Made by a program: the position numbers and the translations under genes
Part shown: piece by piece, positions 10,318 to 37,966 of the stretch
How positions within the stretch are numbered: position 1 is the first letter of the stretch
Layout: each line of letters starts with the position of its first letter
Assembly (NCBI GenBank): GCA_964646045.1
Contig: CAZYAW010000088.1
Coordinates: 239 to 64,238 of the forward strand
Direction: 5' to 3'
From: an uncultured Victivallales bacterium
GTDB lineage: Bacteria; Verrucomicrobiota; Kiritimatiellia; UBA8416; SLMC01
Length of the DNA: 64,000 nucleotides
The notes under the pieces: generated by a model
Databases searched by the model: none
Seen by the model: only the letters and a program-made list of their open reading frames with translations
Told to the model about the DNA's origin: nothing

Positions 10318-10346
10318 ACTCTAGTTGTCCACCCGTACTCTGTCAA
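10318..10346 (-). promoter_or_regulatory. Sigma70-like promoter (TTGACA-N17-TAGAGT) upstream of the TPR/lpxK block
   Basis: Minus-strand -35 at 10341-10346 and -10 at 10318-10323, about 50 nt upstream of the TPR ATG (10258). Confidence 0.3.
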
Positions 10347-10443
10347 GACCGCAATTTCACTTCTCGGCCGTTCGCCTTGCGCACGGGGTGTTGCCAGAGC
10401 CTCCATCGGGCGCCATTGATCCTGGACTAACCGCACGGACGCT

Positions 10444-16874: not shown

Positions 16875-16897
16875 GAAAGCCGCCTATCCTGATCGCG

Positions 16898-17484: not shown

Positions 17485-18384
17485 CTACCGTCTCCGCCTT
17501 CTCGACAAACGATTCGAAAGATACCCGGACAGAATGGCGTCCAGCCTTTCGTCGGTGGCGATATCCGTCAGGTCGTAGCGAAAACGCGCGCAGACCTCGC
17601 GAATCGCCGCCAAATGACGCTCCCTCTCCCTCATATAGGCGCCAACCAGATCTTCCGGATCGCAGAGAAGACGGCCTTCGCCCTCGAGTCCGCGGAAGAT
17701 GGTCTGGCCCACAAACGGAAAATCCCTTTCCGTGGGATCCTCGATATGGAACAGCATGACATCGTGCCCCATATAGCTCATCTGGCCTAGACCCTTGACC
17801 AGCGTGTCGGTTTCATCGACAAAATCGCTGATCACCACCACGACGCCCTTGTTCTTCATTTGCGGCGCAGCGTTCAGCATGGCCCGCCCGATATCGGTCT
17901 TGTCGCCCGGCTGCATCTTGGTCATGACATCCAGCGTGTTGCGAAAATGCGAACCCGATCCCTTGGCGCCCAGAAACGAACGGATGCGTTCGTCGAACAG
18001 AACGACCCCGAAGGTATCCTTCTGCTGCATCATCAAATACGCGAGCGTGGCGACGACCGTGGAAGCGTACTCGTACTTGGACAGGGCGGCCTCTTCGCTT
18101 TTAAAGAACATCGAGGCGCTGGTATCCAGGAAAAAGTACATCGGCATGTTGGTTTCCGCCTCGTACTGTTTCACGAAGAAACGGTCCGTCTTGGCGAACA
18201 CCTTCCAGTCCAGATGCTTGGTGTCGTCGCCCTGCACGTACTGGCGATGCTGCGCGAACTCGGTGCTGATGCCCCGCAACCGGCTCTTGTGAATGCCCAT
18301 CATCAGGCTTTCCGCGAGACGGAAGCTGCGCACTTCCAGTCCCTTGACGCGGCTGACGACATGCGGATCGAAAATGTCTGCCAT
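17485..18384 (-). CDS. DUF58 (MoxR-associated vWA-like) protein
   Basis: DUF58 signature region (HRQYVQGDDTKHLDWKVFAKTDRFFVKQYE). One-nt TAATG junction with the upstream MoxR gene. Confidence 0.75.
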   Translation of the reverse strand: MADIFDPHVVSRVKGLEVRSFRLAESLMMGIHKSRLRGISTEFAQHRQYVQGDDTKHLDWKVFAKTDRFFVKQYEAETNMPMYFFLDTSASMFFKSEEAALSKYEYASTVVATLAYLMMQQKDTFGVVLFDERIRSFLGAKGSGSHFRNTLDVMTKMQPGDKTDIGRAMLNAAPQMKNKGVVVVISDFVDETDTLVKGLGQMSYMGHDVMLFHIEDPTERDFPFVGQTIFRGLEGEGRLLCDPEDLVGAYMRERERHLAAIREVCARFRYDLTDIATDERLDAILSGYLSNRLSRRRRR

Positions 18385-19577
18385 TATGCGGCCACCATGT
18401 TGAGCAGTTCATCTACAATCTTCTGGCGGGTTATGCCCTCGGCTTCGGCGGCGAAGTTGGGCTGAATGCGGTGGCCCAGAACGGCGTGCGCCACCTCCTT
18501 GACATCGTTGACGGTCACTTCATTACGTCCGTCCAGAACGGCCACGGCCTTGCCGCCAATGACCAGATACTGGCAGGCTCGCGGACCGGCGCCCCAGGAC
18601 ACCCACTTGCGCACGAACTCCGGCGCGGACGGCATGTCGCTACGGCTGGAACGGACCAGCTTGAGAATATAGTTGATCACGTCGTCGCCTATCATGACCT
18701 TGCGCACCAGCGCCTGCAGCTCGATGATTTCCTCGCGCGCCAGCACCGGCTGAATGTCCGGCTTGTAGCCGGACGTCGTCATGTCCAGAATCTGCTTCTC
18801 CTCCTGTTCACGGGGATAGCCGACGTTGACTTGGAACATGAAACGGTCCATCTGGGCTTCGGGCAACGGATAGGTGCCTTCCTGCTCGATGGGGTTCTGC
18901 GTGGCCAGCACGAAAAAAGGCGGCTCGAGGGCGCGCCGCTTGCCGCCCACCGTCACCTGCCGCTCCTGCATGGACTCGAGCAGCGACGCCTGGGTCTTGG
19001 GCGGCGTACGGTTGATTTCGTCGGCCAGCAGAATGTTGGTGAAGATCGGCCCCTCGATAAAGCGGAAACTGCGTTCGCCGGTGCTTTTGTCCTCCTGAAT
19101 GACTTCGGTGCCCGTAATGTCGGAAGGCATCAGGTCGGGCGTGAACTGCACACGCTTGAAATTGAGCGAGAGACTGGAGGCCAACGTACTGACCAGCAGC
19201 GTCTTGCCCAGGCCCGGGACACCCATGAGCAGACAGTGACCCTGCGAGAAGAGACTGACCATGGTGAGCTTGACCACTTCGTTCTGGCCGACCAGCGCCT
19301 TGCGAACCTGCGTCATGATCTTTTCGTTGGCCTCGCGCAGTTTGCCGATCTTGGCCATATCGTCGGCCGTCCATTCCTCCTGCTGCGTCATGACATAGGG
19401 CGTTTCCGGCTCTTCCTCCTTGACCGCCGCCGCGGCGGACGGCGCGGATCCCGCCTCGACAACGTCTTTCTGCTCGACGGTAAACACATTGCCGCATTTT
19501 CCGCATTCGGCTTCCTTGCCCAGCATGTCGGTTTCGCTTTCGTATGGCTGTTCGCACTTGGAACACTTGAACTTCAT
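18384..19577 (-). CDS. MoxR-family AAA+ ATPase with N-terminal C4 zinc-ribbon
   Basis: N-terminus MKFKCSKCEQ...CGKCGN (MJ0042-type ribbon), then MoxR motifs (GVPGLGKT Walker A, LADEINR Walker B). Confidence 0.8.
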   Translation of the reverse strand: MKFKCSKCEQPYESETDMLGKEAECGKCGNVFTVEQKDVVEAGSAPSAAAAVKEEEPETPYVMTQQEEWTADDMAKIGKLREANEKIMTQVRKALVGQNEVVKLTMVSLFSQGHCLLMGVPGLGKTLLVSTLASSLSLNFKRVQFTPDLMPSDITGTEVIQEDKSTGERSFRFIEGPIFTNILLADEINRTPPKTQASLLESMQERQVTVGGKRRALEPPFFVLATQNPIEQEGTYPLPEAQMDRFMFQVNVGYPREQEEKQILDMTTSGYKPDIQPVLAREEIIELQALVRKVMIGDDVINYILKLVRSSRSDMPSAPEFVRKWVSWGAGPRACQYLVIGGKAVAVLDGRNEVTVNDVKEVAHAVLGHRIQPNFAAEAEGITRQKIVDELLNMVAA

Positions 19578-19587: not shown

Positions 19588-20760
19588 CTAGGGTTTCCCT
19601 TTGTTTCCTGTTCCGTTTGCCGTTTGACGATTATTCCGGCGTCCGACTTTTTTGAGGGCCGACCAGCGGCCGCGCAACCATTGGCCGCCCGGAACGGACG
19701 CCAGACCGGCGGTCGCCTGTTTTTCTATTTTGAGCACGTCGCGCATCCAGATCGAGCCCTTGGGCACGGTATTGGCCACCGCATCGCGCAGCATGGCCTT
19801 GATCACATATTTGCCGTCGCGGCCCTTGGCCTGCGCCCGGAAGTCCACCAGCAGCCGATGCGCCAGGACCGGATAGGCCACTTCCATGATATCCTGTTTC
19901 GTCACGTGCCGGCGACCGCAGGACAGGGCAATGACCTTGGCCAGCTTGATCAGCGCCTGCGTGGCGCGCGGCGAAGCGCCCAGCCGCACGTTGTCCACCA
20001 CGGCACGGCAGGTGGAAGCTTCTTTCGGGCGACTGGAGCGGACGATCGACATGGCAAAGGCCTTGACGGACGGCACGACCGGCACCTCCTGCGCCAGCGC
20101 CTGCATGGCCAGAATCGTTTGCGGATCGGTTACGGCCCGGATCTCGGGCCGGTAGGTGCCGGTCGTGCTGCGCACAATGGCCCGCTCCTCGCTTTCCGTC
20201 GGATAGTCCTGTTCGATCATCATGATGAAGCGATCGACCTGCGCCTCGCCCAGCATGAAGACGCCCTCGTGATCGAGCGTGTTCTGCGTGGCCACGATCA
20301 TGAAGGGTTTGGGCAGAAAATAGGTTTGCCCGCCCATCGTGATCTGCTTTTCCTGCATGACTTCCAGCAGCGCCGCCTGGGACCGGGCCGGACTGCGGTT
20401 GACTTCGTCGGCCAGCACCATATTGGCGAAAACCGGGCCTTTGAAAAAATGGAAGCTCCGCTCGCCGGTCTGGGCGTTGCGCTCCAGCACTTCCGTCCCG
20501 GTGATATCCGTCGGCAGTAGATCGGGCGTGAACTGAATGCGCCCGTGGTCGAGTCCCAGAATGTCCGAAAGCGACTTGACGATGAGCGTGCGCCCCAGCC
20601 CCGGAAACCCCTTCAGCAGAACGTGCCCGCCGGCGAAAACGGCCGCCAGCAAATGGGTGATCACCTGTTCCTGACCCATGACGATCTTGGCCATCTCCCG
20701 GCGAATCGCATGAAAATTGTCGTAAAACTCCTTGGTGGAGATCGAACCGTTCCCGTTCAT
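19588..20760 (-). CDS. MoxR-family AAA+ ATPase (second paralog)
   Basis: GFPGLGRT Walker A and LADEVNR Walker B. GGAGG Shine-Dalgarno precedes the downstream MoxR gene. Confidence 0.8.
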   Translation of the reverse strand: MNGNGSISTKEFYDNFHAIRREMAKIVMGQEQVITHLLAAVFAGGHVLLKGFPGLGRTLIVKSLSDILGLDHGRIQFTPDLLPTDITGTEVLERNAQTGERSFHFFKGPVFANMVLADEVNRSPARSQAALLEVMQEKQITMGGQTYFLPKPFMIVATQNTLDHEGVFMLGEAQVDRFIMMIEQDYPTESEERAIVRSTTGTYRPEIRAVTDPQTILAMQALAQEVPVVPSVKAFAMSIVRSSRPKEASTCRAVVDNVRLGASPRATQALIKLAKVIALSCGRRHVTKQDIMEVAYPVLAHRLLVDFRAQAKGRDGKYVIKAMLRDAVANTVPKGSIWMRDVLKIEKQATAGLASVPGGQWLRGRWSALKKVGRRNNRQTANGTGNKGKP

Positions 20761-20792: not shown

Positions 20793-22040
20793 CTACTGCG
20801 CCGCAAACTTCAATACGCGCGCCGCGCCCCAGTTGGCGACATCGCCAATGTCCAGATCGCCGCCGCTGACGACTTTGAGCGTCAACATCTTGACCCCTTT
20901 GACGGGGACCGAAACCGAGAGCGAACGCGCATCGGAACCCTTGACCAACGGGCTCTTGTACAGGGACCGGCCGTCGCCGAGCACTTCGAAAACCACGCTG
21001 CCGCGCTTGCCCATGCGCGTATCGACACCGACATCCGACTGGAACTTCTCGTAGCGCCCGCCCAGATCGAAGGTCAGGGCGGCATCGGCATGCACGCCAA
21101 TGCCCCAGGGGTAGTTCTGGCCCGCAATGGACAACACGTTGCCGTGACAGTTGAAGTCCATTTTGTAGGGTTGCGGCGGCATCAAAATGGTCTGTTCCTC
21201 AACCTTGACCGGATCGATCTGGGAAAGGTATTGTACCTTGCCGCCCAGCACCTGCACCAGCGAAATTTCGTCCAGATCGATATGCAGCGGTTTCGGCATC
21301 CAGTCCGTCTGGAACGCCCATTCGCGGGAGCGGATGTGCGCCAGGCGTCCCGAAAGAACGCTGCGATCGCGACCGGTCAGGGCCAGCCGCAACTCGCCCT
21401 TCCAGGGCTCGACTTTGGCGCGGGCCACATCGGCCATGCGCACGCCGCGCAAATACATGATATTAAACGAGCGGACCTGCAGCAAGTCGTCGATATCCAT
21501 GTGCAGCGCCGTCCGTTCCAGACCGCGCACCACGCCGGTAATCTCCGAGCCGCGCCGGTCCACCAAAGCGTCGCGGTATGCCAGGCCGGGAATAGCCCGA
21601 CTATCGACCAGCTCCTCCGCCCGGAAACTGGCGAAGCCCATCATGGGCTGCGTCACGAACCCGCGCAAATGGGACATATCCAGAAAAACCGTCCCGGCCA
21701 TCGGGGTATCGACCTGCAGCTTGTCGCCTTCGTGTCCCAGAATCTGTCCGCGCAAATAGCCGCGTCCAACAAAACGCATCTCCTGGGTACCGGCCTGGGT
21801 CAGCAGCGGATCGCGCCCGAAAAAACGAATGGCGACAATATCCTCCATGGCAATGACCCGTTCCTTGCCCTCGGGCAGAAACACCGCCACCTTGTTGCCG
21901 TCTTCGACGCGCTGCACCAGACCGTACACGCGGGTATTGTCGGCCAGCCAGATCTCTTCCCCTCGCGCCCCGTGCACCGTACCGCAAAACAGCGCCAAAG
22001 CCATGCAGACCGAGGTTCGCCATGTCATTCTTTTCACTGT
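20793..22040 (-). CDS. Secreted protein with C-terminal NPCBM (NEW2) carbohydrate-binding-like domain; start GTG 22040 or ATG 22028
   Basis: Signal-peptide-like MTWRTSVCMALALFCGTVHG. The last ~130 aa carry the NPCBM pattern (GIGVHA...GSVVFEV.GDG..L....DIGDVANWGAARV). AGGGAGG Shine-Dalgarno 6 nt upstream of the GTG. Confidence 0.6.
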   Translation of the reverse strand, partial: TVKRMTWRTSVCMALALFCGTVHGARGEEIWLADNTRVYGLVQRVEDGNKVAVFLPEGKERVIAMEDIVAIRFFGRDPLLTQAGTQEMRFVGRGYLRGQILGHEGDKLQVDTPMAGTVFLDMSHLRGFVTQPMMGFASFRAEELVDSRAIPGLAYRDALVDRRGSEITGVVRGLERTALHMDIDDLLQVRSFNIMYLRGVRMADVARAKVEPWKGELRLALTGRDRSVLSGRLAHIRSREWAFQTDWMPKPLHIDLDEISLVQVLGGKVQYLSQIDPVKVEEQTILMPPQPYKMDFNCHGNVLSIAGQNYPWGIGVHADAALTFDLGGRYEKFQSDVGVDTRMGKRGSVVFEVLGDGRSLYKSPLVKGSDARSLSVSVPVKGVKMLTLKVVSGGDLDIGDVANWGAARVLKFAAQ

Positions 22041-25000
22041 GTACCTCCCTCTTCCAGGAACGATGCGTAATAGGCGGAAATCAAAGCCTTGTGTTTGGAC
22101 GGCAGCTCGTGGCTCAAGGCGCGAATCATGATTTCGCGGAGCTCGGCCGGCAATTTGACGTCCTGACGGATGCGCTCCAGAATATAGGCGGCGGTCTGTC
22201 TTTTTTCCCACTCCTCCTGCGTCATCTCCGTGTGCTCGACCGGCTTGGTCGCGGCGACTTCTTCCGCCGAAAGCTCGCGCTCGTCGAGCAGGCCGCGAAT
22301 ATTCTGCATGGCGCGCGCCAGCAGATTCATGGCTTGCTCGCCGGCGGCGATCGCGGCGGCGGCGTCCTTCTCCAGATTGGCCAGCGAAACACCCTTGTAA
22401 TCGCGAATCTCGCCGATACCCAGCGCCAGCACCTTGGCCTGCATGTCGGGCGTAAGGGCCTCGACACGCGCAACGGCGCTCTGCATGATCTTGGTCGCCT
22501 GCGCCAAACTTTTTTCCGCCTGACCGCGATTGACTTTCTCTATGGCTACTGCGGTCGCCCCCTGCGGACGATGTTCGGCAAAGCGGCGCACCTTTCTGAG
22601 AACGTCGTTCTGCAGCAGAGTGGCATGATTGATCTCGGCCGTCATGGCGGCCACCTCGTCCAGGTTCTTGTCCCGCACAATGTACCGGCGGTCGAAAGCG
22701 TCCTTGCCGCCGCGGCGCTTGTTCTCCTCCACCGCTTCGCCGATCAGCTTGCGCTGGGAAACAAAACTCATGGCATCCTTCAGCGTGGACATGGCATCGG
22801 CCTGCAACTGTTGCGTATGCTTTTGCAGCGCCTGCTCCTCGACCAGCTTGAGCGACTGCAGGAATTCGGTGCGCACTTGGCCGAGCATACCGGCCAGTGG
22901 CTTGTCCTCGGGCTTGTCGGCCTCCTTGACCGCCACGTCCAGCGCCTGTACGGCCCGATTCTGGAAATCCTGAATAATAAAGCGTTTGAGACGAATATAG
23001 CGCGGCATTTCCTTTTCCGAGCTGTTGTCGTTCAGGTAGCGCGTGCGGGCCAGGACGCTGTCCTGGGTCGACCAGGCCAGATCCAGCGCCATCGAGAGGC
23101 GGTCGGATCCCACCGGCAGGGCCTTGATCATATCCTCCCAGGTCATACGTTCCGGCGGGGCTCCCCCGGCGTCGGCCACCTGCACGGGCTCCGCTGCGTC
23201 TTCCCCTTCCCCGGGTTTTGGCACTTCAACCACTTGCCCCAGCGTCGTGACCGGGACCATGGCCAGCGTAATGGCCGGATCTTCGTCCAGACGCTGACCC
23301 GCCAGGATCAGACCGCCCTTGACAATGTTGAGGGCATGCAGCGCCGCCTCCTGATCCTTGATGATCTGGTAGGGCTGGTTGTTGGCAATGGCTTTGGCGG
23401 CCCGATCCAGAAATTCGTTGACCCGATGACTGCGCAACTGCTCGTAGGCGACTTCCAGCGGCTCCTGAATGCTGGTGCGCTTTTGCAGCCGGGCATTGTT
23501 CTGCATGTGAACCAGTTGATTTTCCACCTCGGTCTCCACGTCGAGCATGGTCTTCTGGCGTGCCCCCAAGGTCATCAGCGCATCCAGATCCTTTTCCTGG
23601 ATGTCCCCCGTCTCCAGACCGATCAGGCGCGGCGCAATCTCGCGCGTGAGAACGAGCACTTCCTCCTGCTCCTCGTGCAGCAGGGTGGTGCGCACGGCGC
23701 TGATTTGCAAGTCGCGCCAGTCGAAGATGCGTTTGAGGGCCATTTCCAGATTGAGCAGCGCGTATTTCTGGTGGTCTTTGAAGGCCGCATAGGCTTCCGC
23801 GCGCTTGCCTTTCAACGCGGCTTCCGCCGCCTCGGCGGCGGTCTGCGGGCGAGCGTCGCGAACTTTCTGCTCGATCTCCTTGTGATAATCATCCAGAACC
23901 CTTTGCAGGTACTGGGCCACCACATTGAGGCGGGCCGACATGAACTCCAAGTGCATGCGGTTCTGCTCGTAGCCGGCGGTCAGGTCGCGCAGATGCATGT
24001 TCATGGCCCGCGCGGCGCGAATGGAAGCGTTCTGCCGATCCGTCATGCCGGTCCACAGCGGATCGTCCTCCGCGCCGGTGCCCTTGGCCGCCCATTCGGC
24101 GGCCATTTGCCAGGCCTGCAACTGGTTTTCCCAGGCGATGCGGGCTTCCGCCTCGATGGCGCGCGCCCGCTCAATGGATTCCAGGTGGTACTGACTGGGA
24201 CGCACCAGATTGATTTCGTACGAGACGGAGTCCACCAGACCCTTGCCGGTCGGATTGACGTCCTTGGCCCGCAGAAAATAGCGCAGGATGCCCGCCTGCG
24301 GAAGGTCCTCCATGCGACTGAGATCCCAGTTGAAGCGGTGCTCGCTGCGCGTTCCGCGCTGCGGAATGCCGCCCGCCGTGCGACTGTCGAGCGCACGGGG
24401 TTCCTGGCCGTCCATGTGGTACATGAACTGCACTTTTTCCAGTCCGTAGTCGTCGGTGACGCGCAACATGACGTTCACGGCCAGATTGCGCGTTCCCGAC
24501 AGGTTGCGGCCGGGCGCGACGATCTCCACCTCGGGCGCATTGTCGGGAATGACGCTGATTTCATATACCTGCGGACGGGGTTCGCGGTAGCCGTGTTCCT
24601 CGTAAAGCTCGATGCGGTAGGAACCCTCCTTCTCCAAAAACATGCTGTGCTCGAAAGTCGTGCCGCGCCGTCCCAGCGTCAATACGACGGGTTCTTCGTC
24701 CTCGAAGACGTAGCGCGCCTCCGTGAGGCGCATGGACGACTCGAACTCCAGGCGCACCTTGGTGCCCTCCAGTCCCTGCAACTGCCCGCTGGCCACCGAG
24801 CGATTGGGAATGCCGGCATACACCGGATAGTCGTAGTGCGCCGTCACGCTGCGGATGTAGGGGCGCTGAATGATCTGCACCACAAACGTTTCGGTCAAAT
24901 AGTCTCCCCCGCGAATATTGAAACGAATCTCCTCGCGCACATCCTTGAAATTGTACTCGAAGGTATCGTCGGCGCGCACCTCGATATTCTCGCGAATCCA

Positions 25001-25717
25001 ATGCCCGGTTGTGCGGTCGCGATAGGACATCACCACATGCGCGGGCTTCTCGCCCTCCACCGATCCCTTGACGGCCAGGGACTCCATGGCGGGAATGGTC
25101 CAGCCGCGCTCGGGTTCCTCGATCACAATCGTGGTGCGATGCGGCCAGCGCAGCGAGGAAAACGGATTGAAGAAGCGGACCAGACCGATCGCCGCATACT
25201 CGTGCAGCACGACGGAAAGTCCCACGAAAACGGCCAGCACAATAGCCGCGCGGCGGGTCCAGAGCGTGACTTGCGCGGTTTTAACGGCCTCCGCCTCGCG
25301 GGCCTGTTCGGCGACGGGCGCCACGTCGTGAATGGCACTGTCCGCCAGCGCTTTTCCAGTCTCGCCTTGCGTTTCCTGGATGTCCTCGTTTTCGATCAGC
25401 TCGTACAAATCGAGGAGCATGGCCCGCTCCGGCGGCAGAACCGAATCCATGTACCCCAGGGTCTGCTTATGGTTCCAGGGTGTCGCCAAAGGCCTGACGA
25501 TCGTCCACCAGACGGCGGCGCCGATCAGGGCCAGATAGGCGACCAGATTGACGAAACGCACAAAGCCGCCGAAATGTATCCACCAGTCGAGCAGCAGCAG
25601 CGGCGGCAGGACGACCAGGCCCAGCGCCACCAGACGCGCGATGCCGATCCGCTTTATGGCGCTTCTGAACTTGGCCTGAAAATCCGCACACAGGCCGGCG
25701 AGGTTGCCGAGTTCCAT
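22034..25717 (-). CDS. Large (1227 aa) membrane-anchored beta-rich plus long alpha-helical/coiled-coil protein (DUF4175-like, MoxR-operon associated)
   Basis: 2-3 N-terminal TM helices, a mid beta-rich region, and a C-terminal ~600 aa that is E/K/A/L-rich with heptad-like spacing. Balanced composition, unlike the R/G-rich antisense ORF 22022..25795. Confidence 0.55.
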   Translation of the reverse strand: MELGNLAGLCADFQAKFRSAIKRIGIARLVALGLVVLPPLLLLDWWIHFGGFVRFVNLVAYLALIGAAVWWTIVRPLATPWNHKQTLGYMDSVLPPERAMLLDLYELIENEDIQETQGETGKALADSAIHDVAPVAEQAREAEAVKTAQVTLWTRRAAIVLAVFVGLSVVLHEYAAIGLVRFFNPFSSLRWPHRTTIVIEEPERGWTIPAMESLAVKGSVEGEKPAHVVMSYRDRTTGHWIRENIEVRADDTFEYNFKDVREEIRFNIRGGDYLTETFVVQIIQRPYIRSVTAHYDYPVYAGIPNRSVASGQLQGLEGTKVRLEFESSMRLTEARYVFEDEEPVVLTLGRRGTTFEHSMFLEKEGSYRIELYEEHGYREPRPQVYEISVIPDNAPEVEIVAPGRNLSGTRNLAVNVMLRVTDDYGLEKVQFMYHMDGQEPRALDSRTAGGIPQRGTRSEHRFNWDLSRMEDLPQAGILRYFLRAKDVNPTGKGLVDSVSYEINLVRPSQYHLESIERARAIEAEARIAWENQLQAWQMAAEWAAKGTGAEDDPLWTGMTDRQNASIRAARAMNMHLRDLTAGYEQNRMHLEFMSARLNVVAQYLQRVLDDYHKEIEQKVRDARPQTAAEAAEAALKGKRAEAYAAFKDHQKYALLNLEMALKRIFDWRDLQISAVRTTLLHEEQEEVLVLTREIAPRLIGLETGDIQEKDLDALMTLGARQKTMLDVETEVENQLVHMQNNARLQKRTSIQEPLEVAYEQLRSHRVNEFLDRAAKAIANNQPYQIIKDQEAALHALNIVKGGLILAGQRLDEDPAITLAMVPVTTLGQVVEVPKPGEGEDAAEPVQVADAGGAPPERMTWEDMIKALPVGSDRLSMALDLAWSTQDSVLARTRYLNDNSSEKEMPRYIRLKRFIIQDFQNRAVQALDVAVKEADKPEDKPLAGMLGQVRTEFLQSLKLVEEQALQKHTQQLQADAMSTLKDAMSFVSQRKLIGEAVEENKRRGGKDAFDRRYIVRDKNLDEVAAMTAEINHATLLQNDVLRKVRRFAEHRPQGATAVAIEKVNRGQAEKSLAQATKIMQSAVARVEALTPDMQAKVLALGIGEIRDYKGVSLANLEKDAAAAIAAGEQAMNLLARAMQNIRGLLDERELSAEEVAATKPVEHTEMTQEEWEKRQTAAYILERIRQDVKLPAELREIMIRALSHELPSKHKALISAYYASFLEEGGTQ

Positions 25718-25730
25718 AGCAAGCTACTCC

Positions 25731-26927
25731 TTATCTCTCGTAAATGGGCAGATACCCGTAGGGGGCCTGCAAAGCAATGGCCGCCATGGCCGTGACATAG
25801 ACCGTGTTGCCGCGATGGTCGGCGAATTCGCCGTCCTTGCGGCGGGCGGCCCGCAGAATCTCCACCGCCTTCTTGTAGTAGGGCAGGTAGTACGTGTCGC
25901 CGGTGGTATACATCGCCAGACTGCCGAAGAAAATGCCGTACACGAAATACTCGCGATCCAGAAAATCCTGCACGGTATAGCGCTGATAGTCGTAGGCGAT
26001 GCGGTCGCGGGTCGGCGGGATCAGCATGTGGTCGAGCGAGCCGTCGTTGACCAGCGCGATGATGCCGGTTCCGCTCATGCTGGGATTGGCCGTCAGCCCG
26101 AAATGACGGTAGCGGAACGTGCCGTCCGGCAACGCGCATCTCTCGACATAGGCCATGCCTTTGCGCACCACGTCGGCGGATACGGTGAACCCCGACTTCT
26201 TGGCCGTACGCAACACCCAGAGCGCATTGCCGGTCACCGATATGTCGCTGGCGCCGTCCGGCGAATAGGAATAGCGCCATCCGCCGTCGCGCTTCTGGGC
26301 CTGCTGCATGCCCTCCAGCGCCCGCGTGATGATGGGCCTGAGCCCGGGTTCCCAGGGCATGTCGCCGAAGTTCATCAGCAGCACGAGGGTCGCCAGCAGA
26401 TGTTCGTACATGGGACCCAGCTCGTTGGCCGTCTTGCCGACCAGAATGCCGCTGCTGGTCTGCACGTTGCGCGTCAGGAATTCAATGCCGCGCGTGATCT
26501 GGCGTCCGTACCGGCCGATGTTGGGGCGACTGCCCTCCGACATGAAAGCCATCATGGCCAGAGCCGCCACGCCGGTATTGGACTGAAAATCCTTGTCCGT
26601 CCAGCCGCCGTCGGCGTCCTGCATGGTGACCAGATACTTCAAGGCGCCGTCGATCATCTCCTTGACTTCGTCGGTGAGCAGTTCCTCGGCCATACGGCTG
26701 CGCTCGGTCGCCCGCGGCAGCACCAGAAACGCGGGATCCTTGCCCGGGAAGACCGGCCCCTTTTCCGAAGCCTTGCGCTTAAGCAGATCTTCCACCGCCT
26801 TTTCCTTGGCTTTGGCGTCGGCCGGCGCGCTGGTGGGCCCGAACAGGGCCGTTTCGAACGCGATCCCGACCACGACTGCGGCGACCAGCCGCCTGCTCAG
26901 CGAACTCGATCCGGTCCGTTTTCTCAT
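25731..26927 (-). CDS. Secreted prenyltransferase/squalene-cyclase-repeat (alpha/alpha toroid) protein
   Basis: Repeated DADGGW / RDGGWRY motifs and a signal-like N-terminus (RRLVAAVVVGIAF). ATG at 26927 overlaps the upstream gene stop (ATGA). Confidence 0.55.
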   Translation of the reverse strand: MRKRTGSSSLSRRLVAAVVVGIAFETALFGPTSAPADAKAKEKAVEDLLKRKASEKGPVFPGKDPAFLVLPRATERSRMAEELLTDEVKEMIDGALKYLVTMQDADGGWTDKDFQSNTGVAALAMMAFMSEGSRPNIGRYGRQITRGIEFLTRNVQTSSGILVGKTANELGPMYEHLLATLVLLMNFGDMPWEPGLRPIITRALEGMQQAQKRDGGWRYSYSPDGASDISVTGNALWVLRTAKKSGFTVSADVVRKGMAYVERCALPDGTFRYRHFGLTANPSMSGTGIIALVNDGSLDHMLIPPTRDRIAYDYQRYTVQDFLDREYFVYGIFFGSLAMYTTGDTYYLPYYKKAVEILRAARRKDGEFADHRGNTVYVTAMAAIALQAPYGYLPIYER

Positions 26928-29275
26928 AGCAACCCCCACCATTTTCTGAGCGACCATTCCGCTCCCACGAGGAACAGGAACAGGAACAGGAATCCGATGC
27001 CGTCCCATACTTCGACCATAACGGAACGACGCAGCACCTGAAACTCCGTCGGGATCTCGTCGACGAGCGAACGGAGATCCTGCATGTTGCGATAGTCGAA
27101 ATACTTGCCGCCCGTTTTCTCCGCCAGCGCGCGCATGCCCTCGACATCGGCGCTGGTATCGCGATGCTCCATGGACTGCATGTGGACGCGGAAGACATGC
27201 GAGACGTCGAAAATGGGTCGCGCCTCCGAATCGGCGCCCGGCGCGGCCTGCGTACAGCGCACCACGGTGCTGCCCGTGCGGCGGGCCCGGTAGTGGCCGG
27301 TATAGAGCATGCGACCGCCCGAATCAGGCTGCAGCGGGATCATCTGCTCGTCCTTTTGCGGTGTGGTGACGGAGGCGAAGAGCGGCACGCCGCGCAGTTG
27401 AGCCATCAGGGCCGGATCCAGAACGCGCAGGCGAACCAACACGTTTTCGCCGGGCGAATAAGTGTTGCGTTCGGTATCGAGCGCCACCTGCTGCTGGGAT
27501 CCCTTGAGCCGCGTTTCGCCGAGATAGCGAATCGCACGCGTCCAGAGCCGATCGTAGTCGAAGGTTTCAAAAGGAAAGCGCCAGCGCCAAAGGCTATTGA
27601 TGCCGGAATAGAAAACCGCCCCCTCGCCGTAGCGCTGAATCACCATCAGCGGCACGGTGTCGGCGGCCAACCCGCCGCCGTCGGCGCTCGGCTCGGTCTC
27701 GAGCAGCGTAATGGCGTCCGGCTTGACCCGTTCGACGGGGGCGTGCCAGTAGAACTTCGGGAAAGTCGCCCAGATTTTCTCGTTGTCCTCCTCGTGACTC
27801 GATGCCAGCATAATGGGATGGTCCCGCCCGATCGTGGTGCGCCGCACCGCCCGCTCGCGGTCGAAGACCTGAAAATAGTTGGGCATCAGGTTGCGATCAA
27901 CTTCGACCGGCAGCAGGTTGCGCATGCGCACGGCGTGCACCTGGACGAATTTCGCCATGCCGTGGTTGCGCCCGGCCATGATCAGCAGGCCGCCGCCACG
28001 CCGCACCATATCGTCGATGCCGGTGATCTGCTGGGTCGTAATCTTGTTGGGGTCGGCGTCGAAGAGAATGCAGACGTCGTAGCGTTGCCAGTCGGCCAGA
28101 TCCTCGGGCAGCCGACTCAGCGTGACATTGCCCTGCTGAACATAGTCCACGTCCGCATTCTGCAGCCAGGTGGACAGCTCCAACACCGGGTCGCGCAGCA
28201 GCGCCGGCACCAGATAGTAGTATTCGCGCGTGGGCTCGCCCGCGATCAGAATGACACGCAAGGAGCGACGCACCACCTTGACATGGACGGAAGCCTCGTT
28301 GTTTTCCAGGTTCACTTCGTCGGGCTGGATCGGAAGCGAGACCTTGAACTCGCGAATGCCTTCGACCTCGGGCACGGTGGCGATCGGCACGCGGTTTTCG
28401 CCGCGGCGCAGTTGCACGCGCCGACTGGCCACCTGTTCGCCCTCTTCCGTGAGGGTCAGCGTCGTCACCAGTTGATCCTGAATCTGATTGACGATTTTCA
28501 AGTCGAAAATCAGAACGTCGCCCAGACTGGCTTCGGCTTCCACAAGGACGTCCTCGATGCCCAGGTCGCGCAGGGGATGTTCGGTGCCGAAAACCACCGT
28601 ATGCACCGGCACATTGGCCCGCGCCGCCTGTTCGGCCGCCACTTCGAGACTGGCGCCGCTGGTCTGGCGTCCGTCGCTCAGCAGCACGATCCCGGAAATG
28701 CGTTCGTCGGACAGATTGCGCAGCGTGGCGACGATGGAGTCGCCGACATTCGAGTATTCGCCGGTCGGTTCGGCGGCTTTGGTGAATAGCTCGTCCCGTG
28801 TCATCGGCGCCTGGCTGCGATTTTCGCGATAGGGCATTTCGCGCAGCAGCCGCAACATGTCGGAAAAGGTGAACACACGGACGCGATGCGACAGCGTAAG
28901 CGGTTCCTGCAGCGTGTTGACGGCCTCCTGCATGGTGTCGTAGCGAGTGCGCCGGTCTCGGGGCCGGGCCTGGACCATGGGATTTTCGAGCGTATCCGGG
29001 AAGTCCATGCTCAGGGACTCGTCCACGATCATGGCTACGGCGGGCAGACGGCGCGTGGTGTGGACCAGCGTCACGGCCGGGCGCGCCAGCGCCAGCAGGC
29101 CTAAACCGGCCACCAGCACACGTAAGATCCAGAGCGTACGCTTCTGCCGCGGGGTCAGCCGTCGGGCCTGGCGAGCCTCGCTGCGATAGAAGCGCGCGTA
29201 CACGAACAGCAGCGCGACACCCAGTACGACCAGGAACACGATAAACGGTTGGCTTGTCAGCATCGTTGGCTTCAT
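26924..29275 (-). CDS. Large vWA-domain membrane protein (BatB/BatA-like), N- and C-terminal TM anchors
   Basis: Two N-terminal TM helices, a vWA MIDAS-like motif (IVDESLSMD), and a C-terminal TM (GIGFLFLFLFLVGAEW). Confidence 0.6.
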   Translation of the reverse strand: MKPTMLTSQPFIVFLVVLGVALLFVYARFYRSEARQARRLTPRQKRTLWILRVLVAGLGLLALARPAVTLVHTTRRLPAVAMIVDESLSMDFPDTLENPMVQARPRDRRTRYDTMQEAVNTLQEPLTLSHRVRVFTFSDMLRLLREMPYRENRSQAPMTRDELFTKAAEPTGEYSNVGDSIVATLRNLSDERISGIVLLSDGRQTSGASLEVAAEQAARANVPVHTVVFGTEHPLRDLGIEDVLVEAEASLGDVLIFDLKIVNQIQDQLVTTLTLTEEGEQVASRRVQLRRGENRVPIATVPEVEGIREFKVSLPIQPDEVNLENNEASVHVKVVRRSLRVILIAGEPTREYYYLVPALLRDPVLELSTWLQNADVDYVQQGNVTLSRLPEDLADWQRYDVCILFDADPNKITTQQITGIDDMVRRGGGLLIMAGRNHGMAKFVQVHAVRMRNLLPVEVDRNLMPNYFQVFDRERAVRRTTIGRDHPIMLASSHEEDNEKIWATFPKFYWHAPVERVKPDAITLLETEPSADGGGLAADTVPLMVIQRYGEGAVFYSGINSLWRWRFPFETFDYDRLWTRAIRYLGETRLKGSQQQVALDTERNTYSPGENVLVRLRVLDPALMAQLRGVPLFASVTTPQKDEQMIPLQPDSGGRMLYTGHYRARRTGSTVVRCTQAAPGADSEARPIFDVSHVFRVHMQSMEHRDTSADVEGMRALAEKTGGKYFDYRNMQDLRSLVDEIPTEFQVLRRSVMVEVWDGIGFLFLFLFLVGAEWSLRKWWGLL

Positions 29276-31485
29276 GCGGTTTTCATTCCCCTCGCTCTAC
29301 GCCGGCCGAATCGCAAGGCCAGAAACGCCTCGACGCCCAGCACGATCAGCACGATCCAAAGAAAAAACTGCGAAAACTCCGTGACGGCATGCATTTTGGC
29401 CGCCAAGTCCTCGATCGGAACCTCGGGGTTGACCCACGTGTACTGGCCGCGCCCGAATGCGTTTCTGAATCCGGACTCGGACAGGCGGCTGAGGTCCCCC
29501 TGTTCGGAACGGGGATTGACGACGAAGCGGGTGCGCGGCACCACGCCGGGCAGCGTATCCACGAAACGGTAGACTCCCTGCTGGTCGGTATCCTCGTAGC
29601 GCACGAACCAGGCGTCCTCCTGATCCGGACGGGCTTGCGGGGTCAGGCGCGAACGCTGTCCGTCGGGCGCCTGCAGAATCAGGTGCTGGGCGCTGACGAA
29701 AACCAGTTGCTCGAAGGGGTCGCCCGCATCCACATTGACCTTCTCGTCCGGGTTGCCCATCAGGTAGCGCAGCGTATCCTGAACGAGAACGGGGTATTCG
29801 ATCACGGCGGGCAGGTAGGTCCAATGCGCGCCGGCCGTCGCGTTGGCCAGCAGCACGCGTCCGCGACCGTACTCCTTCTCGATCAGGAAAGGCGTGCCGT
29901 CGGACATCGCCAACGCGACCCGGGCGCCCTCCTGCAGATTCAGATTGTAGAGGACCGAAAAACGGGCGTCGCGGGCGACGCTGGCGCCCAGGGCGTGCAG
30001 GGCGGGATGCGTGGAGGCCCCGAAATTCAGGTAGGGGCGCGCATCGGAATCGGCGGCGTCGGCCGTGATCGTCTTGACATCGAGCAGCGCGCCGGGCAAC
30101 GGGCCCTGGCCTTCCGCGTAGAAATGACGGTTGTAGTCGAAGGCGTTGATGTTCGGCCCGAGAAAGAACCACAGGGAACCGCCGGCGGCGGCATACTGTT
30201 TCAGCCGCGCGCCCAGCGATTCGTCCACGTGGGCCAACTGGGTGGCGATCATCACGGGATAGCGGTCGAGATTTTCGTAGCGCAGCATCGAGGGATGAAT
30301 CGACGTGGCGGAGAAGCGCGTGACCTTTTCCATGGCCGGATGCGTGGGCGGCGCGATGGCGCGCGTCAGGAAGACGCTTTCCATGCGCAGCGGATCGACG
30401 GCCGTTTCCGCTTGCGTTTCCGGGGCCGCCGCCCCGGTCACCGGCGCCGTCTCGTCCAGAATCAGCACGGGAAACGTCTCGGGCACGGTGCAGAGGTAGG
30501 CGCGCTGGTTGTCGATGAGGTGCTGGTCGCCTTCGACCACGGCCTCGACGACGTATTCGCCCGGCTGCGCGAAGGTGTGATCGAAACTGACGACCGCCGG
30601 TTTCTCGCCCGGTTCGAAGTAGCGCACGTCCTTGCTGTCGCCGTCGACCACCAGCGTCACCGAAGGCCGGGCGTCGCGCGGCGGACGCCCCCAGGTTCCC
30701 ACCTGTACCTGAAAGGTGACGGGCAATTTCGTGGAAAGGGCGAACTCCGTCGGGCGCAATTCGGAGAGAACATAGTTGAAGTCGTGCTTGCTGCCCACGT
30801 CCACCAGGTAAAGATCGTTCTTTTCGCCCAGTTCGCCCAGCAGCCGGGACGTTTCGGCGGCCAGCCCGCCGGGCGGCGACCACGTGTTACGCTGAAAGTC
30901 CGAGAAGACATAGACTTCCGCCGCCGTTTCGTCTTCGGCGCGTTTGAAGTACTCGCTCATCCACTGCAGCGCGGAGGCGGCCGGAACGGCGCCCAGCGTG
31001 GCTCGCAGGGCATCGACCTTGGCGGCTGCGGTGTGGGCGTCGGTCTCCTTTTCCAGTACGCCCTCGGCGCGCGTGCCGAAGGACAGGACGGTAATCAGAG
31101 CATCGCCCTCGACCCCGCGGATCAGACCGGACGCGCGCCGCTGGGCCACGCCGAAGGCCGTAGTGACGCCCACCTGCTGATGCATGCTGGCCGTCGCGTC
31201 CAGGGCGATGACCAGATGACGCCGCCGTCCGTCGCCCATCATACCGTGGCGCACTTGCGGACGCGCCAGTGCCAGCGCCAACAGCAAAAGCAGCAGCGTG
31301 CGCACCAGCAGCAGGATGCGATCCTGCCGTTTAATGTTCTCCTGATCCTTGTTGCGCAGCAGAAAGCGCAACGTCGGCAGATCGACCTGACGCTTGCGTC
31401 GGCGAAACAGCCATTCAATGATCCAGGGAAGAGCGGCCGCCAGAAGGGCCAACAGCATGAGAGGGTTGCCGAAAAAAGAGGTCAC
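29272..31485 (-). CDS. BatA-like vWA-domain membrane protein; start probably GTG 31485 (or ATG 31458)
   Basis: BatA-type N-terminus (NPLMLLALLAAALPWIIEWLFRRRKR...LRFL), vWA motif (IALDATASM), and a C-terminal TM helix. GGGAG Shine-Dalgarno upstream of the GTG. Confidence 0.6.
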   Translation of the reverse strand: MTSFFGNPLMLLALLAAALPWIIEWLFRRRKRQVDLPTLRFLLRNKDQENIKRQDRILLLVRTLLLLLLALALARPQVRHGMMGDGRRRHLVIALDATASMHQQVGVTTAFGVAQRRASGLIRGVEGDALITVLSFGTRAEGVLEKETDAHTAAAKVDALRATLGAVPAASALQWMSEYFKRAEDETAAEVYVFSDFQRNTWSPPGGLAAETSRLLGELGEKNDLYLVDVGSKHDFNYVLSELRPTEFALSTKLPVTFQVQVGTWGRPPRDARPSVTLVVDGDSKDVRYFEPGEKPAVVSFDHTFAQPGEYVVEAVVEGDQHLIDNQRAYLCTVPETFPVLILDETAPVTGAAAPETQAETAVDPLRMESVFLTRAIAPPTHPAMEKVTRFSATSIHPSMLRYENLDRYPVMIATQLAHVDESLGARLKQYAAAGGSLWFFLGPNINAFDYNRHFYAEGQGPLPGALLDVKTITADAADSDARPYLNFGASTHPALHALGASVARDARFSVLYNLNLQEGARVALAMSDGTPFLIEKEYGRGRVLLANATAGAHWTYLPAVIEYPVLVQDTLRYLMGNPDEKVNVDAGDPFEQLVFVSAQHLILQAPDGQRSRLTPQARPDQEDAWFVRYEDTDQQGVYRFVDTLPGVVPRTRFVVNPRSEQGDLSRLSESGFRNAFGRGQYTWVNPEVPIEDLAAKMHAVTEFSQFFLWIVLIVLGVEAFLALRFGRRRARGMKTA

Positions 31486-31841
31486 AAAACGCTCCCGTAT
31501 CAAGTTGATTGTCCACCCGCAACGCTTATGCGGCATTCCTGCCGTCGGCACGGGAGCCGAGCGCCGGGGACGCGGCCCCGTGCCAACAACCTTTGAGCCG
31601 ACATTCCCGCCCTAGGCAAAGTCGCAACTAGCAAACACGATGGAAGTCATTAACAGGCATTGGGGACATTGTCAATAGACAAACAAAAAAAAAACCGAAA
31701 CCGCGCGCAAAGGCCGGCAGATCTCGTTACGCCCCGAACCCCGCCGCCTTGTATCGCGGGGGACGACTCCCAAACGAGAACGGCTGGGCGAACGCACATT
31801 GCTGTTGACGACGCATGGCCCGATGCGCTATGGGTGGCGGC

Positions 31842-34785: not shown

Positions 34786-34917
34786 TTGCGCTCGTTTTGT
34801 CTCAAACAGGCCGGAAACACGGCGGAAAACAGTATACGGCATGGCGCCGACGGGCGCGGCATGGCGCGTCCGGCCCTTTCAGCCAACAGGGAAGGTTTGC
34901 CCGAGCCGGAATGGCAA

Positions 34918-34990
34918 GCCCATGTAGCTCAGTTGGCAGAGCACATCCTTGGTAAGGATGAGGTCAGCGGTTCGATCCCGCTCATGGGCT
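34918..34990 (+). tRNA. tRNA-Thr (anticodon GGU)
   Basis: Cloverleaf: acceptor GCCCATG/CATGGGC, D-arm TAGCTCAGTTGGCAGAGCA, anticodon loop TTGGTAA, T-arm GGTTCGATCC. Confidence 0.85.
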
Positions 34991-35043
34991 CCGCGGCCGC
35001 GACGAACGCGAAAAAACAGTAACACTCGTAAGGAGAGAACATC

Positions 35044-36252
<1,209 letters not shown>

Positions 36253-36306
36253 CGTTGAATTCTTCATTCGCGCCCTCTGGAAATCGGAAGAAGGCGGAGA
36301 TCGCTT

Positions 36307-36459
36307 ATGCCTAGGGAACTGGTGGTTCTGGCCTGCGCGGAATGCAAAAGGCGCAATTATACAACGGACCGCAACAAGAAATCCGGATCCGGCCGTCTGG
36401 AAATCACGAAGTACTGCCGCTTCGACAATAAGCGGACTGTACACAAGGAAACGAAGTAA
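36307..36459 (+). CDS. rpmG: 50S ribosomal protein L33
   Basis: Translation [50 protein letters not shown]. Too short to appear in the ORF track. Confidence 0.85.
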
Positions 36460-36476
36460 AGCCGACTTTTTCCGGA

Positions 36477-36553
36477 AGGCCAGTAGCTCAATTTGGCAGA
36501 GCGCCGGTCTCCAAAACCGGAAGTTGGGGGTTCGAGTCCCTCCTGGCCTGCCA
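36477..36553 (+). tRNA. tRNA-Trp (anticodon CCA)
   Basis: Acceptor AGGCCAG/CTGGCCT, anticodon loop CTCCAAA, T-loop GGTTCGAGTCC, encoded 3' CCA. Canonical position between rpmG and secE. Confidence 0.9.
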
Positions 36554-36715
36554 TGCGAGGGTCTTCCCGTTGCTCCACCAAATGGAAAAGCGTGCGGCGA
36601 TTTGATGGGTAAACGGTTAGCGCCGGGTTTGCTGCAGGTTGGCGTGGCGTTGTGCAGGCAGGCCGCCAACGCGCAAGAGGTCGGACAAGCGAAGGACCGC
36701 TCGGGAGCGTGCGCA

Positions 36716-36934
36716 ATGGAAAACAAGACGACTGTTTCGCTAAAAGGCAAAGTCAAGACGTTCTGGGACGAAGTCGTGGCGGAAACCGTGAAATGCGAGT
36801 GGCCGTCGCGGCAGTCGCTGATGGAATCGACGGTCGTCGTGATTTTCACGGTGGTTTTGCTGAGTGTTTTTGTCGGAATCAGCGACCGCTTTCTGGTCCG
36901 TCTGATCGGACTGTTGACTCCGACCGGGGGTTGA
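36716..36934 (+). CDS. secE: Preprotein translocase subunit SecE
   Basis: 72-aa single-TM protein (MENKTTVSLKGKVKTFWDEVVAETVKCEWPSRQSLMESTVVVIFTVVLL...) directly upstream of nusG. Confidence 0.8.
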   Translation: MENKTTVSLKGKVKTFWDEVVAETVKCEWPSRQSLMESTVVVIFTVVLLSVFVGISDRFLVRLIGLLTPTGG

Positions 36935-36942
36935 GCGCCGTT

Positions 36943-37494
36943 ATGCAGAAAGAATGGTTCGTAGTGCATACCCTTACGGGGCAGGAGCAAAAGGTGAGAG
37001 ACAGCCTTCTGCACAGGATCCCTTTCGAGAGCATGGAGGAACACATCGATCAGGTCGTGATCCCGATGGAAAATGTCTCCGAAATCAAAAAAGGCGTTAA
37101 AACGACGGTTCGCAAGAAATTTTTCCCGGGATATGTACTGCTGCACATCGCTCTGTACGACGATCAACGCAAAGTCCGGGAAAACAGTTGGCATTTTATA
37201 CAGGACACCCCGGGCGTCATTCGCTTTATGGGGGGCAACAAGCCTACTCCGCTCAGCGAAGAGGAAATGGTGCAGATCCTGAGTCAGATGGAAGAGAAGA
37301 GCGAAAAGGCACGACCGAAAATCACCTTTGAGCCGGGAGAATCGGTAAAGATCAACGACGGACCGTTCCTGAACTTTAGCGGTACGGTGGAAGAGGCCGA
37401 TCCCGACCGGGGGAAGCTGAAAGTTTCGGTGGCCATTTTCGGCAGGACGGCTCCCGTCGAGTTGGAGTACTGGCAAGTGGAACGAATGGAATAG
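36943..37494 (+). CDS. nusG: Transcription termination/antitermination factor NusG
   Basis: NGN domain ([14 protein letters not shown]) and KOW motif ([20 protein letters not shown]). Confidence 0.9.
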
Positions 37495-37537
37495 CGTACG
37501 CGACAACGAACGAGACGGAAGGGCGAGGAATAGATTC

Positions 37538-37966
37538 ATGGCCAAGCGCATTACCGGGAAAATCAAACTGCAGATTCCGGCCGGACAAGCCAACCCGGCT
37601 CCGCCGGTGGGTCCCGCACTGGGACAGCAGGGCGTGAACATCATGGAGTTTTGCAAGGCGTTCAATGCCGCCACGCAAAGCCAGGCCGGAATGGTGGTTC
37701 CGGTCGTCATCACGGTATATCACGACAAGTCTTTTTCGTTCATTACCAAGAGCCCGCCGGCCGCTTCCCTGCTCAAGCGTTCGGCCGGACTGGCCAAAGG
37801 ATCGGCCCAGCCCAATCGCGACAAAGTCGGAACGGTGACGCAAACGCAAATCATGGAAATCGTCAAAATCAAGGAGAAGGACCTGAATGCCATCGACGCC
37901 GAGCATGCCGCCAGAATGATTGCGGGAACCGCTCGCAGTATGGGGGTTCAAGTGGTGGAGGGCTGA
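37538..37966 (+). CDS. rplK: 50S ribosomal protein L11
   Basis: L11 motifs ([30 protein letters not shown]). Confidence 0.9.

Follow-up and report, generated by a model that had tools for sequence, protein, structure and literature searches.

A putative divergent DUF4175-superfamily membrane protein encoded in a conserved MoxR-VWA operon of an uncultured Victivallales bacterium

To our knowledge, few bacterial gene clusters that lack a mechanism are as widespread as the operons combining MoxR, DUF58, and BatA genes. These operons are represented by the Bat (aerotolerance) operons of Bacteroides, Leptospira, and Borrelia and by RL3499-RL3502 of Rhizobium leguminosarum, with a core of a MoxR AAA_3 ATPase, a DUF58 protein, and BatA-N plus von Willebrand factor type A (VWA) domains. 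DUF4175 proteins, described by the models PF13779 and TIGR02302 (aProt_lowcomp), are membrane proteins of ~850 to 1150 amino acids (aa) with a MoxR, DUF58, and BatA/DUF4159-type gene neighborhood; RL3502 may be one of them. In Acinetobacter baumannii, the essential division protein AdvA carries a DUF4175 annotation over its N-terminal region with two transmembrane (TM) helices (PMC7481262). Here, we analyzed a 64,000-nucleotide (nt) stretch of DNA (the window) from an uncultured Victivallales bacterium (GenBank assembly GCA_964646045.1, contig CAZYAW010000088.1, positions 239 to 64,238), in which the open reading frame (ORF) 22034..25717 on the minus strand encodes a 1227-aa protein, hereafter the target. 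The target is almost certainly a member of the DUF4175 superfamily, and it is encoded in an operon sharing the MoxR, DUF58, and BatA-N plus VWA core.

The ORF was recovered exactly at the coordinates and with the length given in the original prediction, a reading of the bare sequence that preceded this work, and its translation contains the peptide LQADAMSTLKDAMSFVSQRKLIGEAVEENKRRG quoted there. The GC content by codon position was 0.667/0.393/0.787, and the codon log-likelihood, with the Pfam-supported genes of the window as the reference, was 0.504 per codon, compared to 0.46 to 0.54 in the MoxR, BatA, VWA, and DUF58 genes. Relative to the two nearest orthologs, from Kiritimatiellae with 63% aa identity, the differences per codon position were 0.27/0.20/0.49 and 0.28/0.20/0.53, and this order (third above first above second) in the minus frame points to purifying selection in that frame. 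A search of 5.8 billion proteins yielded 47 full-length homologs, namely, one identical JGI protein and 46 proteins with 30 to 63% identity, and all homologs retrieved match the minus-frame protein. Together with the composition and the lack of a family match of the opposite-strand product (described below), these results make four independent lines of evidence that identify the minus-strand ORF as a genuine gene.

The original prediction had likened the protein to DUF4175-type proteins and had proposed a profile search. The direct search was negative, since PF13779 (Pfam gathering threshold, 27.3 bits) matched neither the target at E ≤ 0.01 nor any of 40 family members at E ≤ 1, and TIGR02302 (curated cutoff, 394 bits) gave no match for the target or any of the 40 family members at E ≤ 1; PF13779-type relatives themselves reached only 15 to 23 bits against TIGR02302. 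The likeness was borne out by hhalign, phmmer, and a C-terminal motif. Three proteins among the weak matches of the first homolog search (P0048, P0050, and P0051) exceed the PF13779 gathering threshold, and hhalign of the target family against them returned a probability of 100% with an E value of 2.5e-40 over 744 columns. The aligned range, target aa 13-814, spans the TM region, the following loop, the beta domains, and helical block 1, and PF13779 positions ~186-395 align with target aa ~290-504 in the beta core. When 1.84 billion cluster representatives (50% identity) were searched exhaustively with phmmer, 73 matched at E ≤ 1e-30 (the subfamily with its fragments), and the number rose to 2292 at E ≤ 1e-10 and to 5759 at E ≤ 1e-3. 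A second tier with E values of 1e-24 to 1e-42 covers target aa ~30-800; 5 of 8 second-tier proteins tested passed the PF13779 threshold, and 2 more fell just under it. The C-terminal parts aligned weakly with the PF13779-type tail (E 5.7e-4, probability 29%), pairing the last ~45 residues, LPxExRExMxRAL..FPxKYKxLLxAYYASF, with …LREEIRRAMQLKAPGEFEDLIKLYFRALAEE.

Similar to the PF13779/TIGR02302 proteins, the target has a TM hairpin, a loop of ~80 aa, a third TM helix, a beta-sandwich core, a first helical block, a C-terminal Y[YF]xx[LF] motif, and a MoxR, DUF58, and BatA/DUF4159-type gene neighborhood. In contrast to them, it lies under every curated threshold and carries an extra helical block 2 of ~360 aa, its tail consists of conserved helical bundles where theirs is Q/E/K-rich with heptad or low-complexity character, and its operon differs in order and partners, which include a toroid protein, an NPCBM protein, and twin MoxR ATPases. 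By published description, the part common to the target and AdvA is the N-terminal membrane region, and no MoxR context is described for AdvA in PMC7481262. By these comparisons, the target is placed as a divergent DUF4175 branch overlooked by the curated models, with a helical block 2 of its own and a tail that is not heptad-like. It is a variant of an uncharacterized family that had already been described, and its subfamily is limited to the Planctomycetota-Verrucomicrobiota-Chlamydiota (PVC) clade. A literature search for the target subfamily found no paper on it.

The N-terminal TM helices noticed in the original prediction were recovered by two approaches in agreement. Hydropathy peaks at aa 24-42, 51-74, and 159-177 gave three TM candidates, and an AlphaFold2 (AF2) model of aa 28-1227, built from a 47-sequence alignment (mean predicted local distance difference test score [pLDDT] 81.7, predicted template modeling score [pTM] 0.59), placed membrane helices at aa 29-47, 51-77, and 147-183. 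The Lys/Arg-rich N-terminal segment, aa 1-28 (25634..25717, minus strand, as are all target features below), is predicted to be cytoplasmic by its K+R count and is followed by the TM1-TM2 helical hairpin, aa ~29-77 (25487..25633), the TM2-TM3 loop, aa ~78-146 (~70 to 80 aa; 25280..25486), and the TM3 helix, aa ~147-183, with a hydrophobic core at aa 156-177 (25169..25279). The TM2-TM3 loop, predicted to be cytoplasmic, is the biggest such element among the membrane subunits of the operon. It contains the invariant or near-invariant residues W81, D91, LLDLYEL (aa 101-107), and E115, yet its pLDDT is 42 to 59. Across 40 homologs, the K+R count averaged 4.5 over the 15 residues that precede TM1 and 1.2 between TM1 and TM2; the flanks of the long loop had 3.0 and 3.5, and the segment past TM3 had 2.3. 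This distribution favors a topology with the N terminus and the long loop inside and aa ~180-1227 outside. Directly after TM3, the juxtamembrane motif RFFNPFSSLRWPHRT, aa 181-195 (25133..25177), was the most conserved 15-mer of the family in the conservation scan (score 0.84), with R181, N184, P185, W191, P192, and T195 invariant. In PF13779-type relatives, this region is present in a far weaker form. The motif might contact the membrane surface or dock a partner.

The beta-rich middle, also part of the original prediction, corresponds to AF2 strands at aa ~195-504 (24206..25135) that form three tandem immunoglobulin (Ig)-like beta-sandwiches, predicted to be periplasmic. Foldseek of this region against PDB returned only three-domain arrays of the Ig, fibronectin type III, and complement macroglobulin (MG) type, with a best E value of 4e-8, and weak Big_7 matches at aa ~395-432 were present in 26 of 40 family members. 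The following tail comprises ~660 aa of helix and a linker of ~50 aa. Helical block 1, aa ~507-808 (23294..24199), consists of helical bundles common to DUF4175 relatives and holds the invariant motif DWRDLQ (aa 666-671). The linker, aa ~809-859 (23141..23293), is A/D/P/E/S-rich, predicted to be disordered (pLDDT 34 to 47), and poorly conserved (mean conservation 0.39). Helical block 2, aa ~860-1218 (22064..23140), is subfamily specific by hhalign and phmmer except for its end, where the motif LPAELREIMIRALSHELPSKHKALISAYYASF, aa 1189-1220 (22058..22153), is shared with PF13779-type proteins (…LREEIRRAMQLKAPGEFEDLIKLYFRALAEE) and includes the near-invariant residues L1189, L1201, P1206, Y1209, L1212, L1213, and Y1216.

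The target gene is the fourth of eight genes on the minus strand, running from 31551 to 17485 with spacings from short overlaps to ~30 nt. Gene 1 (29272..31551) encodes a BatA N-terminal double-TM region, a VWA domain with the metal ion-dependent adhesion site (MIDAS) DATAS, and a C-terminal TM helix (Pfam BatA PF07584, 3.7e-15; TIGR02226, 2.6e-15; VWA_2). Gene 2 (26924..29275) encodes two TM helices, a VWA domain with the MIDAS DESLS, a DUF7408/ThuA-like domain, and a C-terminal TM helix, according to Pfam and a TM and MIDAS scan. In both VWA proteins, the two N-terminal TM helices lie around an Arg/Lys-rich loop, and the DxSxS MIDAS is intact. Gene 3 (25731..27008) encodes a signal-anchored alpha/alpha-toroid protein resembling squalene-hopene cyclase (SHC) (SQHop_cyclase_C, 3.6e-10; weak PDB match to SHC; TM helix at aa 41-59), and its stop codon lies 13 nt upstream of the target start. 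A split alpha-2-macroglobulin/complement-like system, combining MG-like sandwiches with a toroid like the thioester-containing domain, was considered and discarded, as the C3/C5 matches were no better than those to other Ig arrays, the toroid repeats are of the prenyltransferase/squalene-cyclase type, and no CGEQ thioester motif was seen by eye.

Gene 5 (20793..22028) encodes an exported NPCBM/CBM51-like protein (NPCBM, 1.5e-34; PDB CBM51 structures 2vmg/2vmh, E 1e-11), with the CBM51-like part as its C-terminal domain. Its start is likely the ATG at 22028, 5 nt past the target stop, from which the product has the signal-peptide-like N terminus MTWRTSVCMALALFCGTVHG. The longest ORF for this gene, 20793-22211 on the minus strand (472 aa), starts at a GTG at 22211 and overlaps the target 3' end by 178 nt. 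At the related locus L005, the target and NPCBM genes overlap by ATGA, which suggests that the two genes are translationally coupled. Genes 6 and 7 encode the AAA_3 ATPases MoxR_a (19588..20760; 2.1e-54) and MoxR_b (18384..19577; 3.1e-63), and gene 8 (17485..18384) encodes a DUF58 protein with a VWA-like domain (1.6e-42). These three lack TM helices, and the compartments predicted for the operon are mainly periplasmic for five products and cytoplasmic for three. The predicted periplasmic side of the VWA domains agrees with the experimental location of this domain in the BatA-type protein BB0173 (PMC5700661). In MoxR_a, the catalytic Lys of Walker A is replaced by Arg (GFPGLGRT), and GxPGLGR[TS] was found in 29/29 orthologs of related loci; MoxR_b has the canonical GVPGLGKT, with GVPG[LI]GKT in 29/30 orthologs. 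The conservation of this pair suggests a hetero-oligomeric or regulated ATPase, with MoxR_a possibly a regulatory variant, and this pair is perhaps what can be tested most readily in the system. The first ~35 aa of MoxR_b (19470-19577, minus strand) form a zinc-ribbon-like CxxC…CxxC segment (KCSKCEQ…ECGKCGN) that an acidic/Ala-rich linker connects to the AAA+ core; this N terminus had a faint match to NCBIfam ECs_2282_CxxC, and in a remote system an FHA domain is fused to MoxR at the same position. A promoter and terminator scan of the operon gave counts equal to those of shuffled sequences.

The co-occurrence with MoxR and BatA anticipated in the original prediction was confirmed by this operon and by its conservation. 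One genome per species was scanned, and 35 related loci were found, all in metagenome-assembled genomes (MAGs), from Planctomycetota (Pirellulaceae, Phycisphaerae, Tepidisphaerales, and Gemmatales), Kiritimatiellae, and Victivallales, with one distant match in a Chthoniobacter MAG. The nearest relatives of the target (62 to 63%) are from Kiritimatiellae MAGs, and the cluster is colinear across the related loci and across phyla. Among loci with enough flanking sequence, the target gene is immediately followed by the NPCBM gene in 30/32, MoxR_a, MoxR_b, and DUF58 are present in 24/26, and the upstream genes were found in 26/29 (toroid), 18/22 (VWA_DUF7408), and 16/22 (BatA_VWA). The remote DUF4175-like protein P0053 is encoded in the order DUF4159, FHA-MoxR, DUF58, BatA/VWA, VWA_DUF7408 homolog, exported protein, P0053, and CBM-like protein, so that the MoxR/DUF58/BatA association reaches past the target subfamily.

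Individual loci deviated from the common arrangement. Locus L002 carries two tandem target paralogs at 4686-8669 and 10001-13978 (1327 and 1325 aa) with one MoxR_a/MoxR_b/DUF58 set; an NPCBM gene follows the first paralog, and three unannotated genes of ~370 aa follow the second. The cluster genes of L036 (4269-18952) and L032 (4992-11915), on MAG contigs of 2.7 and 6.0 Mb, appeared as several adjacent tblastn pieces, and those of L032 were partly inverted with the target cut at ~aa 680; the broken genes could be assembly-error frameshifts or true pseudogenes.

The likeness to the Bat-type operons extends to membrane VWA proteins with a periplasmic VWA domain (PMC5700661). Those systems have a reported role in the envelope or under stress, as far as the reference list of PMC5118466 and the summary in PMC5700661 indicate. 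The TPR proteins BatC/BatE and BatD had no Pfam match among the eight operon products; at one of the related loci, L001, DUF58 is followed by a TPR protein. Unlike the Bat type, the target cluster has two MoxR paralogs, one with the Lys-to-Arg change in Walker A, and includes the SQHop-like and NPCBM proteins.

Taken alone, the target would be a hypothetical protein, and its role is read from context. It quite likely forms a complex with the products of the neighboring genes. We lean, slightly, toward the composite reading that the target projects into the periplasm as a scaffold subunit of a Bat-like envelope complex of the MoxR-VWA type. It would be an inner membrane protein with its N terminus inside, in which the TM1-TM2 hairpin, the conserved cytoplasmic loop of ~80 aa, and TM3 are followed by ~1050 residues projecting into the periplasm, first as three Ig-like sandwiches and then as a series of four-helix bundles with one flexible linker. 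As a stoichiometric structural subunit (scaffold or stalk), its periplasmic rod would organize the two MIDAS-bearing VWA proteins, the alpha/alpha-toroid protein, and the glycan-binding NPCBM/CBM51-like protein. The loop, being conserved, flexible, and the largest predicted cytoplasmic piece among the membrane subunits, is proposed as a handle through which the MoxR_a/MoxR_b pair and DUF58 would assemble or remodel the complex. This mechanism of scaffolding plus loop coupling is put forward tentatively, as somewhat less probable than not. The physiological output would probably be envelope maintenance or integrity, or stress tolerance, by analogy with RL3499-RL3502, whose envelope role is stated in a title cited by PMC5118466 (Vanderlinde et al. 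2011) and in the summary in PMC5700661, and with the Pseudomonas aeruginosa MoxR/VWF (Arc) cluster, which protects from interbacterial antagonism (PMC8926400).

Several observations weigh against the scaffold reading. Direct Pfam, NCBIfam, and PDB sequence searches gave no match to the target, and a family-profile search of PDB sequences returned none with E below 0.2. The topology comes from hydropathy and the positive-inside rule, and the K+R count after TM3 (2.3) is near the 3.0 to 3.5 of the loop flanks. The pTM values of the two AF2 models (0.59, and 0.48 for the tail model described below) do not establish the inter-domain arrangement and the "rod" shape. The fold matches of the target are generic and uninformative on function. 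In the tail, the residues D552, W555, Q562, N586, R596, D669, Q671, E728, E732, R891, P905, R906, and R1045, polar for the most part, are invariant, which suggests a specific binding or catalytic role of the helical blocks beyond passive scaffolding. The relatives all come from metagenome-assembled genomes, and the subfamily is known here from sequence alone. Finally, we know of no Bat-type system in which the action of a cytoplasmic AAA+ ATPase on mainly periplasmic proteins has been explained.

DUF4175 proteins, with the 5759 cluster representatives at E ≤ 0.001, are the largest and least understood component of the MoxR-DUF58-BatA operons. The target subfamily offers well-ordered, confidently modeled domains in place of a low-complexity tail, is coupled to a glycan-binding partner, and is accompanied by a MoxR pair with one catalytic and one Walker A-variant member. 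These features would make it more tractable than the canonical family for structural and interaction work. It also suggests that ATPase and periplasm are likely linked through the cytoplasmic loop, and its relevance lies mainly in research on MoxR/Bat systems and the PVC envelope.

An alternative is that the target is a client, whose folding, membrane insertion, oligomerization, or turnover would be driven by MoxR_a/MoxR_b and DUF58, much as other MoxR-VWA pairs act in the maturation of a dedicated target. MoxR systems usually serve one dedicated client, a general frame taken from PMC8926400 and PMC3495828, a flexible yet conserved loop is the type of handle that an AAA+ pore could engage, and in L002 two tandem target paralogs go with a single MoxR set. 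However, most of the target is predicted to be periplasmic, beyond the reach of a cytoplasmic unfoldase, and a stable complex would better account for the strict 1:1 synteny with four other envelope proteins. A client role is considered unlikely.

The helical bundles could also belong to a periplasmic sensor or transducer, in which they would sense a ligand or stress and the signal would pass via TM3 and the loop to regulate the MoxR pair. Four-helix bundle (4HB) sensor domains occur in chemoreceptors and histidine kinases, and periplasmic 4HB sensors were among the fold matches of the tail, together with the talin rod, vinculin/alpha-catenin, and de novo bundles, at 5 to 14% identity. In these searches, de novo bundles, talin, and vinculin matched as well as the sensors did or better, as expected of a generic fold, and the likeness to talin rod, vinculin/alpha-catenin, and 4HB sensors is a structural analogy without sequence relationship. 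No HAMP, kinase, methyl-accepting chemotaxis protein signaling, or other output domain was found in the Pfam and NCBIfam scans, and about five stacked bundles plus three Ig domains far exceed known sensors. We regard a sensor as rather unlikely.

A further extension of the scaffold reading, which we hold to be quite improbable, would have the eight-gene cluster encode a trans-envelope machine that is specific to PVC bacteria and powered by an AAA+ ATPase. Catalytic MoxR_b and Lys-to-Arg MoxR_a would assemble asymmetrically and, with DUF58, grip the target loop and pass ATP-driven conformational work via TM3 into the periplasm-spanning rod, which would place the MIDAS/VWA, toroid, and CBM51-like subunits at the cell wall or outer membrane. 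If true, this would be energy transduction similar in logic to Tol-Pal/TonB but driven by a cytoplasmic AAA+ ATPase, and it would give the entire DUF4175/Bat class its first mechanism.

The original prediction had described the tail as a ~600-aa coiled coil with heptad-like periodicity. Its helical nature held up at aa ~507-808 and 860-1218, and its heptad periodicity was at chance level on a home-made score, not a standard predictor, which used 28-residue windows, seven registers, and the 99th percentile of composition-matched shuffles as the cutoff. In the two helical blocks of the target, 0% of residues were above the cutoff (maxima, 7.4 and 8.0), compared to 27% in the tail of the PF13779 protein P0048 (maximum, 12.1); the GCN4 zipper scored 11.2, and PF13779-type maxima were comparable to it. 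Twelve subfamily members ranged from 0 to 6%, versus 15 to 45% in 10 PF13779-type proteins, and the Q+E+K content of the tail was 21 to 25% versus 27 to 35%. The target tail has position-specific conservation and is not of low complexity. A second AF2 model, of aa 505-1227 alone (pLDDT 84.4, pTM 0.48), recovered the same helices, of 13 to 67 residues each, confidently packed with short connecting loops. Provisionally, stacks of helical bundles describe the tail better than a classical coiled coil does. An extended coiled coil formed between chains, i.e., a dimeric or trimeric fiber folded back wrongly by the model, would accord with the strong heptad signal in the tails of PF13779-type relatives, with a tail composition rich in A, E, L, R, and Q, and with the blindness of monomer AF2 to intermolecular coiled coils; given the chance-level score, it is judged very unlikely.

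A mobile antiphage or conflict system of the MoxR-vWA type is highly improbable. Weak bpMoxR Pfam matches were present on both ATPases and weak IetA/TRIP13 PADLOC matches on MoxR_b. AAA_3 scored 183 to 212 bits on these proteins, compared to 38 to 48 bits for bpMoxR, no other gene, including the target, had a PADLOC match, and no effector domains were found; the cluster is chromosomal, near rpoB/rpoC/fusA/murJ, and colinear across phyla.

The opposite strand of the target gene carries an uninterrupted ORF of 1257 aa, 22022..25795 (plus strand), and since this antisense ORF exceeds the target ORF, length is no evidence for coding in this window of ~61% GC. Although its frame of 1257 codons is unbroken, expression of this ORF is practically untenable, as its GC3 is 0.663 compared to ~0.79 in genes of the window, its codon log-likelihood ratio (LLR) is 0.145 compared to 0.504, its product is G/R/L/H-rich and K-poor (G 11.5%, R 9.6%, L 14.2%, and K 1.4%) with no family match in the Pfam scan, and both the substitutions and all homologs fit the minus frame, so that, as far as sequence analysis reaches, it is a shadow ORF, the artifact that the original prediction had taken it for.

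Elsewhere in the window, a housekeeping block on the plus strand at 37651-50906 contains rplA, rpoB (39843-43634), rpoC (43631-47821), and fusA (48675-50906) and marks the window as core chromosome. A 944-aa ORF at 34879..37713 on the minus strand had no Pfam match, and its translation, with many R, G, H, and F residues, was not protein-like by eye; this ORF is almost certainly the shadow of plus-strand genes that precede rplA, e.g., the 402-aa ORF 35044-36252. In the 500-aa "epimerase" ORF at 31799-33301 (plus strand), which has unusual codon statistics over its full length (GC2 0.561, GC3 0.667, and LLR 0.082), the Pfam Epimerase domain begins only at residue 181, and the TTG start probably lies too far upstream, the true gene being shorter. 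The region 4000-16900 contains envelope-biosynthesis genes, including that for MurJ (4968-6560, minus strand) and several for GT4 glycosyltransferases (11721-16874, minus strand), and compared to the rest of the window it showed a higher GC content (0.65 to 0.68) and a strongly positive AT skew (0.17 to 0.26).

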